Positions 37,976 to 42,608 of a stretch of DNA of 64,000 bases are shown one piece after another. The translations under genes and the position numbers were made by a program. The stretch is from Alphaproteobacteria bacterium UBA3768 (lineage in GTDB: Bacteria > Pseudomonadota > Alphaproteobacteria > CAAHEQ01 > UBA3637), in contig DFFU01000008.1 of NCBI GenBank assembly GCA_002372315.1, positions 12,014 through 76,013 on the forward strand. Direction: 5' to 3'. Position 1 is the stretch's first letter; the number at the start of each line of letters is the position of its first letter. The notes under the pieces are model-generated. The model saw only the letters and a program-made list of their open reading frames with translations, did no database searches and was not told the DNA's origin.

Positions 37976-40213
37976 ATGAATAAATCATCAAACGCTGTTT
38001 TGAATCCTTTTTCTTTGTATTTTTTGTTCCTTTTGGGAACAACCATATATTATTCCTGTTATTATTCTTCAACTAGATTTTTTAAATGCATTGGATATTG
38101 TATAGGATTTGACTTAATAGTTATAGCACTGGCTTTTATCTTTCATAAATTGTTGCCTAAAGGTTTGATTGGAAAATTTATCCAATTTGTTATACTCCTA
38201 TTTCCTTTTATTATATATTTAATACATATATGCTTTCATAATTTTCATCATACTAATTTAAATGCTGATCATATATTAGCGTTGTTGCAGACAAATTTAT
38301 CTGAAATGCGTCAATATATAATTAGTGATTTTATTTCATTCATAGTTTTTTTGGGTTGTGTTTTTTTTATATCCTTTTTCATTATATGGTCTATAAGCTA
38401 TCCCATTCAAAAAATTTCTCTTAAAAATCAAATCCTAGTTTTATTTTTAGGATATTTGCTTTTTATTGGTGTTGATTTTCCAAAGCTATTTTTTCCATTT
38501 CAACAATCTATTTTAGTTATGAAAGAATTGAATCAATGGAAAAAAGAGTTAATTTATTTAAATACAAAAATCTCACAAAATATATCCCCAAAAGACGAAG
38601 AAATAATTGTTGTCGTTATTGGAGAATCACAAAATAGACAGCATATGTCAGCCTATGGATATACTAAAAATACTACTCCTTGGTTGTTAGAAAATATTAA
38701 AAATAATGCAAAGGGAGAGCTAGTACTTCTGAATGAAGCTTATTCATGCCATACGCATACGGTTCAAACTTTATCATACGCCTTGACTTCAAAGAATTCA
38801 TATGATAATAGAGATTTAAAAAACTGCTTGTCAATTATTGATGTTAGCAAAAAGTTAGGATCCTATACTACATGGTGGATATCTAATCAGAAAAAAGTGG
38901 GATTGTATAATTCCATTATATCCTTTCTTGCAAGTAATGCCGATCATGTTATATGGGCGAATAATTCCTTTTCTTTCAAAGATCCATATGATGAGATAAT
39001 ATTTAAGTATTTGCCATCTGTAGATCAACTCAAAACAGGACGTCATCTAGTTTTTATACATTTGATGGGTAATCATTTAGTTTATGGTGAACGTTATCCA
39101 GAAAAATGGAACAAATTTGGGGAAAATTTAATAGGAAGTTATGATAACAGTATTTTATATAATGACTATATTGTAGAAAACATTTACAATCATTTTTCAA
39201 AAATGAAGAATTTTTCAGCTATGATTTATTTTTCTGATCATGCGGATAGTGTAGAAGATGGACGTTTTCACGAATCTGCTCGTTTTTCATGGAATATGAC
39301 AAAAATTCCTTTCTGGATCTTTTTTTCTAGTGATTACATAAAAAAACATCCAGATATATATTCAAATATCAAAAAAAATCAAAAAAAGGCTTTTACTAAC
39401 GATTTGATGTTTGATACATTAATGGGGATTTTGGGTATAAAAGATACACCATTATATATGCCAGAAAATGATTTTTCTAATGCGAAATATAAGTACGATA
39501 AATCAAATTTGGCAACCTTACATGGAGAAAAACCTCTGATAGAAGAGTTTCAGAATCCAAGTATTTTTTGGTTACATAGGGTCAATTCTCCTAGAAAATT
39601 AAAAGAACTGGGTGATAAATATAAAGGTTTAGAATTAGATATTATTTACCACGAAAAAGAAAATGAGTTTGAAAACTCACATGATGTTATGAGTTTAAAA
39701 GAATTTCCTTTGATAAAAACATTAAATGCATATTCCGAATTATCTTATAAGCCTTCCTTATGGTTTGATTTTAAAAATTTAACTATTAAAAATGCAAAAT
39801 TTGCACTAAAACGACTCGAAATAATCCTAAAAGAATATAATATCGATAAGAATAATGTGTGGTTAGAGGCTTCAGATATTCAGGCATTGTCACTATTTAC
39901 AAAAGCAGGATGGAAAACCAGCTACTATGTTCCTTACTATAATTTAAAATCACTTACAAGAGCTGAAATACAAAAAATTAAACAGGAGATTCAGAATATT
40001 TCTTTTTCAGAAAAAGTAAAATCCATTTCTTTTGATGGACAGTATTACTCATTCATTAAATCTATTAAATTGAATCCTAATATATCACTGTTGACGTGGT
40101 TTCACACATTAGATATAAATCAATTCATGCAGCATTCTGAGTATAAAAAAATCCTATCAGATGATCAAATCAAAGTCATTTTGATTAAGGAGATTGGCCA
40201 TCATCACAGGTGA
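37976..40213 (+). CDS. Membrane-anchored phosphoethanolamine-transferase-family (sulfatase fold, EptA/PptA-like) protein fused to a C-terminal GDPD/PLC-like phosphodiesterase-like domain
   Basis: 745 aa with about 5 N-terminal TM helices. Sulfatase-family motifs: IVVVIGESQNRQHMSAYGY, SCHTHT (the catalytic Thr region), HLMGNHLVYGERYP and YFSDHADS. The C-terminal ~230 aa carry HR...E.D...HD spacing (WLHRVNSPRKL...LELDIIYHEKENEFENSHD), reminiscent of glycerophosphodiester phosphodiesterases. Confidence 0.7.
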   Translation: MNKSSNAVLNPFSLYFLFLLGTTIYYSCYYSSTRFFKCIGYCIGFDLIVIALAFIFHKLLPKGLIGKFIQFVILLFPFIIYLIHICFHNFHHTNLNADHILALLQTNLSEMRQYIISDFISFIVFLGCVFFISFFIIWSISYPIQKISLKNQILVLFLGYLLFIGVDFPKLFFPFQQSILVMKELNQWKKELIYLNTKISQNISPKDEEIIVVVIGESQNRQHMSAYGYTKNTTPWLLENIKNNAKGELVLLNEAYSCHTHTVQTLSYALTSKNSYDNRDLKNCLSIIDVSKKLGSYTTWWISNQKKVGLYNSIISFLASNADHVIWANNSFSFKDPYDEIIFKYLPSVDQLKTGRHLVFIHLMGNHLVYGERYPEKWNKFGENLIGSYDNSILYNDYIVENIYNHFSKMKNFSAMIYFSDHADSVEDGRFHESARFSWNMTKIPFWIFFSSDYIKKHPDIYSNIKKNQKKAFTNDLMFDTLMGILGIKDTPLYMPENDFSNAKYKYDKSNLATLHGEKPLIEEFQNPSIFWLHRVNSPRKLKELGDKYKGLELDIIYHEKENEFENSHDVMSLKEFPLIKTLNAYSELSYKPSLWFDFKNLTIKNAKFALKRLEIILKEYNIDKNNVWLEASDIQALSLFTKAGWKTSYYVPYYNLKSLTRAEIQKIKQEIQNISFSEKVKSISFDGQYYSFIKSIKLNPNISLLTWFHTLDINQFMQHSEYKKILSDDQIKVILIKEIGHHHR

Positions 40214-41792: not shown

Positions 41793-42608
41793 TTAATCAT
41801 CACACAAGGCAGCGATTGCTTCAGCATCTGTTTGAAAATATTCTGATGAGGCACTACAATTAGAACAGCTCGTAACAACATTTGCAGTATACTCGTTGTC
41901 GTATCTCCAAATCGCACCAGATATACAACTATAAGCGCTCCAACCATTATCACATAAAGCAGCAAGTGCTTCAGCATCTGTTTGAAAATAACCCTCCCTA
42001 TCAAATTGGGTACCAGCTACGTCCACCAGACAGTTATTACACCCCGACACTTCTGAATCGTCGTATTTATTATAAAGAATCCCCGCATCACATTCATATT
42101 TTTTCTTTCCATTTTCACAATTAACATTTCCTTCGCATGAAGGGGTTCCTGCTGGTGTTTCTCCCAGCGTGACAGTCAGGGTATATCCTGTGGCAGGGGA
42201 TGTGGCGGCGGTGCAATCACCCGCTTTATCCCCCAATTTTGTTTTTACTTGTTTACAGATAGTTTCATCCTCTATATTGACATCCAATGTTGTCTTATCA
42301 CCCTTATAGGTAATGCCTCCACATCCGCTAGGACGCATACTTGCACCAAATGCTGTATCAAATGTCAATAAGCCTGTTCCTTCACCAGTATTTTGGGTCA
42401 ATCCCATCATATAGAGCATAGATGTCGCATTAAGAATCTCATTGGTTCTATGTGAGCGCATAGCGGAAGTATACCCTGCAATTCCACCCACACTCAAAAC
42501 ACCAATGATTGCCAGAACGCCCAGCATCTCTATCATGGAACGACCACATTCATTGGTCAGCATTGTTGAATTCATTATTTGTTGTTTTTTGTATCTAAAT
42601 TGGTTCAT
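41793..42608 (-). CDS. Type IV pilin-like protein, long-leader paralog with Cys-rich tandem-repeat C-terminus
   Basis: The class III signal ...NECG|RSMIEMLGVLAIIGVLSVGGI matches pilin 1 exactly at the protein level over 22 aa. A strong RBS GGGAGGAAAGGG precedes the ATG at 42608, giving a 22-aa leader; an internal ATG at 42563 would give a 7-aa leader like pilin 1. The C-terminus has a duplicated YFQTDAEA(L/I)AALCD module, matching the DNA direct repeat at about 41800-41846 and 41954-42000. Confidence 0.7.
   Translation of the reverse strand: MNQFRYKKQQIMNSTMLTNECGRSMIEMLGVLAIIGVLSVGGIAGYTSAMRSHRTNEILNATSMLYMMGLTQNTGEGTGLLTFDTAFGASMRPSGCGGITYKGDKTTLDVNIEDETICKQVKTKLGDKAGDCTAATSPATGYTLTVTLGETPAGTPSCEGNVNCENGKKKYECDAGILYNKYDDSEVSGCNNCLVDVAGTQFDREGYFQTDAEALAALCDNGWSAYSCISGAIWRYDNEYTANVVTSCSNCSASSEYFQTDAEAIAALCDD

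Follow-up and report, generated by a model that had tools for sequence, protein, structure and literature searches.

A gene encoding a pilin-like protein and a gene encoding an OGT-type (GT41) glycosyltransferase form a tight operon on a small genomic island of Alphaproteobacteria bacterium UBA3768, and their adjacency is clearly beyond chance: eight out of ten independent loci with an orthologous GT41 gene have a pilin-like gene directly next to it. The reading that we regard as probable for the island as a whole combines this operon, serving glycosylation, with a separate phospho-form transferase of the LPS type that shares the island. Glycosylation of this sort would be of a known kind, the OGT-type glycosylation of pilins; the new element would be Cys-rich repeat pilin-like proteins as the candidate substrate.

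The tRNA-Leu genomic island

The window, i.e., the whole stretch of 64,000 nt of contig DFFU01000008.1 that was analysed, contains a low-GC island of 6.3 kb with the duplicated 3' end of a tRNA-Leu gene at both borders. A repeat search and pairwise alignment placed the direct repeats 6.34 kb apart, and the GC content of the island is 31.8%, compared with 38% in the window and 44% in the neighbouring hydrogenase gene. The preliminary description of this DNA had proposed three adjacent genes carried by a mobile island, and all of their ORFs were located at the coordinates given there. The features are as follows:

37229..37315, + strand: tRNA-Leu(TAA), into which the island is integrated (ARAGORN)
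37290..37465: left direct repeat, made up of the final 26 nt of tRNA-Leu and ~150 nt downstream (repeat search, alignment)
37350-37374: terminator hairpin in the left repeat (terminator scan)
37367..37883, + strand: putative degraded integrase N-terminus, two short ORF fragments (weak DUF6538 match, ORF list)
37976..40213, + strand: 745-aa inner-membrane enzyme of the phosphoethanolamine (PEtN) transferase family
residues 1 to ~190 of the 745-aa enzyme, + strand: N-terminal membrane domain
residues 211-488 (38606-39439), + strand: EptC/CptA-like sulfatase-fold catalytic domain (Pfam Sulfatase)
residues ~529-745 (39560-40210), + strand: fused GDPD-like TIM barrel
40204..41784, - strand: 526-aa GT41 (OGT-type) glycosyltransferase, second gene of the operon (Glyco_transf_41 profile)
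41793..42608, - strand: 271-aa pilin-like protein, first gene of the operon, separated by 8 nt from the start of GT41
42609..42857: divergent intergenic region, 25% GC (three-way alignment, GC content)
42858..43481, + strand: 207-aa small serine recombinase of the resolvase/invertase type, divergent from the pilin-like gene (Pfam Resolvase)
43633..43809: right direct repeat, containing a second, displaced tRNA-Leu 3' end with a terminator at 43693-43718 (repeat search, alignment, terminator scan)

The two ORF fragments probably represent an integrase remnant, judging from a weak DUF6538 match (Pfam profile search, E 3e-4, below the cut-off) and the position at the tRNA side. With the 3'-end repeat, the putative integrase remnant at the tRNA side and the deviant GC content all found, the element is a tRNA-integrated genomic island; no empty integration site was found in the other assemblies searched. 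The serine recombinase (Pfam Resolvase, E 3.4e-32) has homologs with 68-69% identity in the equivalent position at two of the other GT41 loci (L012 and L014), and a three-way alignment revealed blocks of the divergent intergenic region conserved with the equivalent regions of the same two loci; presumably, this region holds promoters and binding or recombination sites. No convincing pair of long inverted repeats, as expected for a Hin/Gin-type switch, was detected in it.

The pilin-like protein and the GT41 glycosyltransferase

The 271-aa protein has a leader ending at Gly22, a Glu at position +5 and a hydrophobic helix at residues 23-72 (42393-42545), followed by a small Cys-bonded head and two Cys-rich repeat units, which terminate in YFQTDAEA(L/I)AALCD. 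The short basic leader, the Gly, the Glu at +5 and some 20 hydrophobic residues correspond to a class III leader, and the pilin fold is recognisable in a long N-terminal helix that packs against an antiparallel sheet. The earlier assignment to the type IV pilins is borne out by the leader, Gly-1, Glu+5 and the fold, but not by the profile searches, where the protein remains below both thresholds (14.5 versus 21.2 bits and 12.3 versus 16.3 bits for N_methyl PF07963 and TIGR02532, respectively), nor by the +1 residue, which in the motif ...ECG|RSMIEMLGVLAIIGVLSVGG, invariant over 28 relatives, is Arg instead of Phe/Met. The searches revealed no prepilin peptidase or assembly genes within the 64-kb window. 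A second pilin-like gene of the window stands alone between folD and grpE.

The N-terminal domain belongs to a very large family, which comprises 4683 clusters at the 50% identity level (E up to 1e-3) and, among 8000 scored, 7144 clusters at the 90% level. Conservation is confined to the first ~135 residues and the C-termini are hypervariable; some relatives contain a PT-HINT domain (PF07591), and proteins of 750-900 aa occur. By our own count, the density of such genes in the alphaproteobacterial DNA examined is ~1 per 30-40 kb. In the GT41-linked proteins, the number of repeat units, each 44-51 aa long, ranges from 2 to ~14, and a Ser/Thr located 10 residues ahead of the terminal Cys is 98% conserved; this residue may just be a helix cap. 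At other loci, poly-Ser or Cys-rich repeats replace these units.

It is possible, if somewhat doubtful, that the 271-aa protein is no pilus or pseudopilus subunit and that its N-terminus is an anchor or export signal for variable Cys-rich modules, the recombinase varying or moving the cassette and the GT41 enzyme still modifying the module. The size of the family, the conservation limited to the N-terminal part, the hypervariable C-termini, including those with PT-HINT, and lengths far exceeding that of a filament subunit are consistent with this alternative, as are the Arg at +1, the pilin HMM scores and the presence of a serine recombinase at three of the GT41 loci.

The GT41 assignment made in the preliminary description was confirmed by the profile search, in which the second product of the operon scored far above the curated cut-off of Glyco_transf_41 (216.5 versus 25 bits, E 6.7e-64). 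Drosophila and human OGT can be aligned over both catalytic lobes (E 1e-53 to 1e-54), the Drosophila alignment spanning residues 10-320 and 324-519, so that both GT-B lobes are present; the alignment with XcOGT has an E of 1e-43, and the match to the NGT model is weak (E 0.022 versus 1e-54 for OGT). The motifs DF.HHPT (DFRHHPT), CFNNAYK and AHTT are intact, and their residues are invariant in 17 orthologs; we take the N-lobe HP, the Lys of NxxYK and the H-T-T to bind the UDP-sugar, as in human OGT. Given the OGT alignment over both lobes and the intact UDP-binding motifs, the enzyme is predicted to be catalytically competent. In the short TPR-like N-terminal region, a single TPR_1 match at residues 8-39 lies below the curated cut-off (21.5 versus 27.8 bits), and TPR matches were recorded in several orthologs. 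The hydropathy scan found neither a signal peptide nor a transmembrane or other hydrophobic segment (maximum hydropathy 1.36), and the lack of export signals makes this a predicted soluble cytoplasmic enzyme.

All ten ortholog loci, with GT41 at 44-54% identity, come from MAGs of gut/rumen Alphaproteobacteria. The pilin-like gene lies directly upstream on the same strand in seven of them (the window, L010, L012, L014, L015, L018 and L019), with a gap of 8-27 nt where measured, and the longest ORFs of the two genes overlap at L015. At L182, it lies directly downstream of GT41 with a gap of 9 nt, and the gene upstream encodes a Cys-rich repeat protein that has an ordinary signal peptide, so GT41 may recognise the repeat domain and not the pilin part. 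The pilin-like neighbour is absent at L009 and L020, the latter having a GT8-GT41 fusion. The flanks differ among the loci, and therefore the linkage is not a simple inherited neighbourhood. More distant GT41 genes (30-40% identity) were examined at 73 loci, none of which has a pilin-like N-terminus of this type; one has a canonical pilin upstream, and seven have flagellin. No flagellin gene was found at the examined loci with the GT41 of the window or its orthologs (L001-L003, L009-L020). Of the cassette proposed in the preliminary description, the pairing of GT41 with the pilin-like gene was upheld by the search for co-occurrence; the third member was not, since no other GT41 ortholog locus contains a sulfatase gene.

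In the most likely mechanism, the TPR-like N-terminal part of GT41 would bind the newly made, unfolded pilin-like protein, and the GT-B domain would move the sugar from a UDP-sugar to Ser/Thr of the repeat or linker region prior to insertion and export. We infer the substrate, sugar and timing of this reaction; cyanobacterial Ogt is proposed to act on PilA in this way, and the pairs HMW1C/adhesin and FlmG/flagellin operate likewise. Insertion of type IV pilins is generally co-translational, which would leave little time for a cytoplasmic enzyme and presents a topological difficulty for this model.

The closest known system is that of Synechococcus elongatus, where Ogt (Synpcc7942_0051), a protein with TPR and GT41 parts and no export signals, is encoded beside pilin genes and is required for PilA glycosylation; ogt and pilin genes are adjacent in 77 of 201 cyanobacterial genomes (38%) (PMC9306852). 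With an Ogt next to pilA already published, the earlier statement that no such gene group had been described went too far. In S. elongatus, ogt is two genes away from pilA (Synpcc7942_0048/0049), the gene in between being hypothetical, and Ogt has several TPRs and a canonical major pilin as its substrate, whereas here the TPR-like region is much shorter, the genes form a tight operon in a gut alphaproteobacterial host, the partner belongs to a new pilin-like family whose Cys-rich repeat arrays reach ~900 aa and some loci contain a serine recombinase. HMW1C/NGT, a GT41 N-glycosyltransferase acting on HMW1-type adhesins, is likewise a cytoplasmic GT41 encoded beside a large secreted adhesin that is modified before export (PMC3012730), but the GT41 of the window matches the NGT model weakly, and the substrate family and secretion route differ. 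Caulobacter crescentus FlmG, also alphaproteobacterial, combines a modular TPR substrate-binding part with GT-B and acts in the cytoplasm before export; however, it transfers pseudaminic acid onto flagellins (PMC7591256), and the GT41 clade of the window has no flagellin nearby.

Some GT41 relatives are fused to GT8 or pyruvyl transferase, and GT2 genes adjoin in some loci, which points to glycan building. In Gram-positive bacteria, serine-rich-repeat adhesins are glycosylated stepwise in the cytoplasm by GtfA/GtfB, with subsequent GT8 extension; the GT8-GT41 fusion of L020 and the GT2/GT8 neighbours parallel the extension step, while the initiating enzyme family, the export pathway and the envelope type are different.

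We consider it unlikely that GT41 acts on a target encoded elsewhere (flagellin, another cytoplasmic protein or a glycan precursor) and that the pilin-like gene is simply co-transcribed. FlmG and GmaR are flagellin enzymes, some distant proteobacterial GT41 genes lie near flagellin, two orthologs have no pilin-like neighbour and the fusions are compatible with polysaccharide work, but flagellin is missing from the ortholog loci, the neighbour is retained in most of them despite differing flanks and often with a gap of 8-9 nt, which argues for a functional link, and the cyanobacterial precedent connects this enzyme family with pilin (PMC9306852).

The sulfatase-fold enzyme

The 745-aa enzyme contains four or five N-terminal hydrophobic segments (hydropathy scan) and a periplasm-facing sulfatase-fold domain (Pfam Sulfatase, E 1.4e-35) with the nucleophile and metal ligands; such a domain is common to the whole superfamily and cannot discriminate the PptA type. 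Among the models and structures compared, CptA ranks first in NCBIfam and E. coli EptC in the PDB. The CptA scores are below the cut-offs (149 versus 404 bits for PRK10649, 132 versus 900 for NF012179), so by profile score CptA is the best-scoring family, yet the protein is no member of it. The EptC (CptA) of E. coli and Salmonella, a class III enzyme that transfers PEtN onto heptose I of the LPS core, shares the motifs IGES, H-T-H-T, HLxGxH, YDNSxLYND and FSDH with the enzyme of the window, which differs in its sub-threshold score, its island location and an additional GDPD-like domain of 215 residues.

This C-terminal region, assigned to the periplasm, has a GDPD-type TIM-barrel fold, but, unlike GDPDs of the GlpQ/UgpQ type, it is fused to a PEtN transferase and shows no sequence-level match to GDPD in the PDB; the sole Pfam match of the region scanned alone is weak (Menorin, E 1.2e-3). 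It contains the motifs WLHRVNS, LELD, NSHD and LEAS, where E44, D46 and E122 are invariant and H25 is nearly so; the second His is missing from some relatives. The His-Arg, Glu/Asp/Glu and second His are presumably catalytic, these roles being assigned from family knowledge and not from a residue-level structural alignment.

None of 80 loci of the PEtN transferase-GDPD fusion family contains a pilin or GT41 gene within 6 kb. Among closer homologs, taken from an exact-sequence look-up, a pilin-like gene was found nearby at L007/L008 only, where the homolog is located two small genes downstream of a pilin-like mucin-type gene. One ortholog (L179) directly follows GT9-epimerase-GT8-GT2-WaaL, an LPS-core gene cluster, and another (L094) lies near GtrA/GT2/DUF2142, although glycosyltransferase neighbours occur at only about 9 of 86 loci. 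LptF/G, LptD, MlaA, MlaC and SurA are encoded in the window, indicating that the host makes LPS. The adjacency of the 745-aa gene to the operon is not beyond chance and is peculiar to this island, and accident is the best reading of it. Perhaps the presence of all three genes in one small island reflects joint selection, contrary to separate origins.

The preliminary description had interpreted the enzyme as a PptA-like modifier of the pilin. Neisseria PptA, a class XI PEtN/PCho transferase, targets PilE, and C. jejuni EptC is another PEtN transferase that modifies proteins; mobile PEtN transferases acting on LPS are known as well (PMC10525099). Like PptA, the 745-aa enzyme belongs to the sulfatase-fold transferase superfamily and has its catalytic domain in the periplasm; it differs in matching EptC/CptA best among the models and structures compared, in its extra GDPD-like domain and in the lack of pilin linkage in its family. 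A joint decoration cassette, with O-glycosylation of the pilin-like protein by GT41 and PptA-like addition of PEtN/PCho to it by the 745-aa enzyme in the periplasm, seems to us improbable. The three genes do share one repeat-bounded island, the catalytic domain is on the side of the membrane expected for a pilin-type head and repeats, protein-modifying PEtN transferases exist and the L007/L008 homolog has a pilin-like gene close by. However, this single case falls within the background density of pilin-like genes, the fusion family and the other GT41 loci contain no such combination, the best family and structure matches are outside the protein-modifying class, and the 745-aa gene is convergent with the operon and differs from its genes in GC content (27.8% versus 31.5% and 41.5%). 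The PptA-like assignment is not supported.

In the reading that we favour, with a separate LPS-type transferase, the enzyme would have been acquired independently and would most likely attach a phospho-form to the LPS core, O-antigen or another periplasmic glycan, a parallel being the island- or plasmid-borne Lpt6 and Lpt-O; the GDPD-like domain would then process the glycerophosphodiester by-product, donor or product. It is hardly credible that the three genes adjoin by accident and without functional meaning, since, although pilin-like genes are frequent (two in the window alone), the recurrence in eight of ten loci refutes accident for the GT41 pair.

Possible surface proteins of gut Alphaproteobacteria

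Few bacterial OGT-family enzymes have assigned substrates, and the recurrent tight operon supplies a candidate, which is a member of a very large unannotated pilin-like family of gut Alphaproteobacteria with thousands of clusters; the searches found neither a Pfam family nor literature for it. The analysis also removes a tempting false lead, the equation of a PEtN transferase encoded beside a pilin with PptA, and reveals that PEtN transferases fused to a GDPD-like domain are widespread, though uncharacterised. The hypervariability of the C-termini hints at a role in surface recognition or in antigenic variation, in a gut lineage that is common although uncultured. Tentatively, the pilin-style N-terminus may be a shared export and anchoring handle for hypervariable Cys-rich arrays, O-glycosylated in the cytoplasm by a dedicated OGT-family enzyme, with the cassette moved or varied by the serine recombinase; this would be an undescribed class of surface proteins in gut/rumen Alphaproteobacteria, to which the EptC-like/GDPD enzyme of the present island may attach a phospho-form as a second, periplasmic modification. 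If true, such a handle with glycosylated arrays would constitute a Gram-negative counterpart of serine-rich-repeat adhesin glycosylation.

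The GT41–pilin-like operon

All three open reading frames of the preliminary description, which had read them as a cassette for pilin glycosylation and phosphoform decoration, are present as described. The features of the region are as follows.

37229-37315, tRNA-Leu gene
37290-37465 and 43633-43809, direct repeat pair, 6.34 kb apart
37976-40213 (+), 745-aa protein, Pfam Sulfatase at residues 211-488 (E 1.4e-35)
39560-40210, GDPD-like TIM barrel of the 745-aa protein, identified by fold comparison only
40204-41784 (-), GT41 enzyme, 526 aa, Glyco_transf_41 (E 6.7e-64)
41793-42608 (-), pilin-like protein, 271 aa
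42609-42857, divergent region between the pilin-like and recombinase genes
42858-43481, serine recombinase, 207 aa

Exact look-ups and a scan of 185,579 species genomes yielded ten distinct loci with GT41 orthologs (44-54% identity); the scan itself contributed only seven orthologs, all from metagenome-assembled genomes of gut or rumen Alphaproteobacteria.

Position of the pilin-like gene relative to the GT41 gene at the ortholog loci (L-numbers are comparison loci from other genomes or metagenomes)
Immediately upstream, same strand, gaps of 8-27 nt where measured: window, L010, L012, L014, L015, L018, L019
Immediately downstream, gap of 9 nt: L182
Without a pilin-like neighbour: L009, L020

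At L015, the longest ORFs of the two genes overlap. The flanks vary among the loci (ftsZ cluster, htpG, rplS and others), and, since the background in the fetched DNA is about one pilin-like gene per 30-40 kb by our count, the recurrent adjacency cannot be due to chance. Judged by gene order, GT41 and the pilin-like gene form one unit. The proposed pairing as a glycosylation unit, its function being predicted, is thus borne out by recurrence over the ortholog loci and is better supported than the preliminary description could know.

The GT41 enzyme aligns to animal OGT on both catalytic lobes and lacks the intervening domain, as does the Xanthomonas enzyme; the HP, NxxYK and HTT motifs are retained, with residues invariant among 17 orthologs, and a single TPR was detected below threshold. 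No signal peptide or membrane segment was found in GT41, which points to a cytoplasmic enzyme using a nucleotide sugar. An HMW1C-type N-glycosyltransferase was rejected on the profile scores (NGT model E 0.022 vs. OGT 1e-54), and a flagellin-modifying enzyme because a flagellin gene was found near none of the orthologs in the fetched loci. Two orthologs are fused to other enzymes, one to a C-terminal polysaccharide pyruvyl transferase (L019 5467-8004) and one to an N-terminal GT8 (L020 7110-9575), and GT2 genes adjoin GT41 in L010; the fusions and GT2 neighbours suggest that the first sugar gets extended.

In 73 more distant proteobacterial GT41 loci from the same scan, the pilin-like N-terminus was not found (0/73); a canonical GFTLIE pilin lies just upstream in one of them and flagellin lies nearby in seven. 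Loci noted in connection with such a pilin or flagellin are L036 (~5060 and 6799-8262), L031, L040, L042, L043, L051, L060, L065 and L076, and the genera with flagellin within a few kb of GT41 include Paraburkholderia, Rhodoferax and Curvibacter, among others. A separate gene pair, encoding an amine-oxidase-like flavoprotein and a polytopic membrane protein (DUF2142/GT-C-like), adjoins the GT41 ortholog in L009 (4778-7733) and a homolog of the 745-aa enzyme in L094 (9359-12207).

The pilin-like protein and its family

The N-terminus of the 271-aa protein (…ECG-RSMIE-MLGVLAIIGVLSVGG) is organised like a class III (prepilin) signal, with Gly at -1, Glu at +5 and then a hydrophobic helix. In the AlphaFold model of the protein (pLDDT 77.5), a four-stranded sheet comes after a helix of 50 residues. 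Pilin HMMs matched below threshold (N_methyl E 0.026, TIGR02532 E 0.12); the protein is therefore named pilin-like and not a proven pilin. Profile searches with this protein and five large relatives returned only sub-threshold N_methyl matches, the repeats matching no family.

The partner proteins in L010, L014 and L015 are 834-897 aa long and comprise 13-14 units of 44-51 aa with the pattern C…CxC…YYx(S/T)DEEAIAAMC. The 271-aa protein shares this design with two units (YFQTDAEALAALCD and YFQTDAEAIAALCDD; one repeat unit, …YFQTDAEALAALC), and the Ser/Thr ten residues ahead of the last Cys is kept in 98% of 42 units. Partners at the remaining loci carry other Cys-/Ser-rich repeats or poly-Ser linkers, and no Pfam family was found for the partner-protein modules.

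The N-terminal domain defines a very large, unannotated family: among 8000 candidates scored there are 7144 clusters at 90% identity, and 4683 clusters at 50% identity with E up to 1e-3. Conservation is limited to the first ~135 residues. Members include two window proteins (41793-42608 and 28071-28499) and proteins P0241-P0461. The family combines a nearly invariant GRSM(I/V)EMLGVLAIIGVLS N-terminus with hypervariable C-termini; PT-HINT (PF07591) or other modules occur in a few relatives, a hint of polymorphic display of surface proteins or toxins. Literature searches on the N-terminal motif, and on RF32 with pilin, found nothing. Independent metagenome assemblies of the window's strain (contig ends L001-L003 and L180) all break off within the conserved 5' region of the pilin-like gene, whether they reach it from the left or from the right, which is what a multi-copy genomic repeat would cause.

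The island and the 745-aa sulfatase-fold enzyme

The direct repeats consist of the last 26 nt of tRNA-Leu and the next ~150 nt, terminator hairpin included, and enclose the serine recombinase and the three genes as well as a probable remnant of an integrase N-terminus; the GC content of the island is 31.8% vs. 38% for the window. When the patatin gene was used to look for an island-free tRNA-Leu/patatin junction, all contigs found were either truncated or carried the island. To the right of the repeat, GC stays low (32-37%) from 43831 to 48112, up to tRNA-Val (48221-48297); this stretch encodes a patatin-like lipase, a 436-aa ORF without family, HSP20, an acyl-ACP thioesterase and a methyltransferase, and may be an older island or else plain AT-rich core DNA.

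The serine recombinase accompanies the operon pair in three loci (68-69% identity), and the divergent region upstream of the pilin-like gene (also L012 2565-2805 and L014 5328-5590) has several blocks conserved across these loci, which have diverged elsewhere. Two such blocks, TTTAATAGAACGTTTATG and TTTAAACGTTGGTTTATG, both contain an AACGTT-type core; the blocks may serve in binding or recombination. A search of the window, L012 and L014 for the inverted repeats of an invertible promoter beside the recombinase gave nothing convincing, and promoter-like sites were not enriched over shuffled sequence.

The host is judged, by the names on homologs and ortholog loci, to be a gut alphaproteobacterium represented in metagenomes only; exact-sequence look-ups with all three proteins returned no names and no accessions. 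That the host makes LPS is read from LptF/G, LptD, MlaA, MlaC and SurA, all encoded in the window. In a single 1097-aa ORF (22669-25962, +), an LptF/LptG permease domain (residues 21-361) is combined with an LptD domain (residues 668-1030); the ORF represents either one fused gene or two genes without an intervening stop.

The 745-aa enzyme has four to five hydrophobic segments at its N-terminus. Among the family models compared, the best for its catalytic domain is CptA, a heptose-I phosphoethanolamine transferase (149 bits, far under the cut-off of 404 bits), whose score exceeds those of the lipid A and Kdo transferase models. Of the solved structures, E. coli EptC is the nearest match (5.3e-28, compared with 8.5e-16 for Neisseria LptA). 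PptA forms a class of its own, and LPS-acting mobile phosphoethanolamine transferases are known, namely the island-borne Lpt6 and the plasmid-borne Lpt-O (PMC10525099). The gene for the 745-aa enzyme runs convergent to the operon, with an overlap of 10 nt, and its GC content is 27.8% vs. 31.5% and 41.5% for the operon genes. No sulfatase gene was found at the other GT41 ortholog loci.

The C-terminal domain contains the HR, ExD, H and E motifs, and a search of its profile against PDB sequences gave nothing meaningful. A metagenome scan with this domain collected 80 loci (L097-L176; gut, marine, soil and freshwater), mostly encoding the same fusion, and neither GT41 nor any pilin-type N-terminus occurred within 6 kb in any of them (0/80). 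The fusion of an EptC-like with a periplasmic GDPD-like domain is widespread, with 204 confirmed relatives in the metagenome collection (gut, marine (TARA), soil, freshwater), some without the second catalytic His, and appears to be undescribed.

Closer homologs lie in varied contexts: one directly follows an LPS-core/O-antigen cluster (GT9-epimerase-GT8-GT2-WaaL), one is near GtrA/GT2/DUF2142 and two are among housekeeping genes; at L004-L006 the neighbours are mostly unannotated and a pilin-like gene is absent, and at L007/L008 the homolog is downstream of a pilin-like mucin-type gene. The latter gene (L008 5057-7108) encodes a 683-aa protein with a long (TSN)n/poly-Ser mucin-like tract and lies beside a GT2-GT8 fusion and a radical SAM/SPASM gene.

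The proposal that the 745-aa enzyme is a pilin phospho-form transferase is not upheld, given the CptA/EptC best matches and the lack of pilin or GT41 linkage in the 80 loci. On the models, structures and loci compared, LPS or another glycan is a more likely target than the pilin-like protein. The cassette interpretation is thus half right: the pilin-type glycosylation unit stands, and the phospho-form transferase is most likely no part of it.

Proposed glycosylation of the operon partner

Functional statements here are drawn from sequence, fold and synteny. GT41 would glycosylate its operon partner on Ser/Thr of the repeats or linker, and this glycosylation would precede insertion and export of the pilin-like protein. 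Pilins are usually inserted co-translationally, which is a weak point of a cytoplasmic GT41 model; the conserved Ser/Thr may also be a helix cap, a weak point of the glycosylation model. In L182, the gene upstream of GT41 encodes a protein of Cys-rich repeats that bears an ordinary signal peptide, so GT41 may recognise the repeat domain and not the pilin handle.

The preliminary description regarded the trio as undescribed; the GT41–pilin pairing within it has a cyanobacterial precedent (PMC9306852). The Ogt of Synechococcus elongatus adjoins pilA, carries no secretion signal and is required for PilA to bear GlcNAc. Of 201 cyanobacterial genomes, 77 have ogt next to pilin genes; the same pre-export cytoplasmic glycosylation was proposed there (PMC9306852). 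In FlmG, binding of the substrate by the TPR part and sugar transfer by the GT-B part are documented (PMC7591256).

New here are a tight operon found in gut Alphaproteobacteria, carried on a small tRNA island with a serine recombinase alongside, and, as the presumed substrate, a pilin-like family of very large size that bears arrays of Cys-rich repeats. Each GT41 clade may be tied to its own exported filament protein or substrate.
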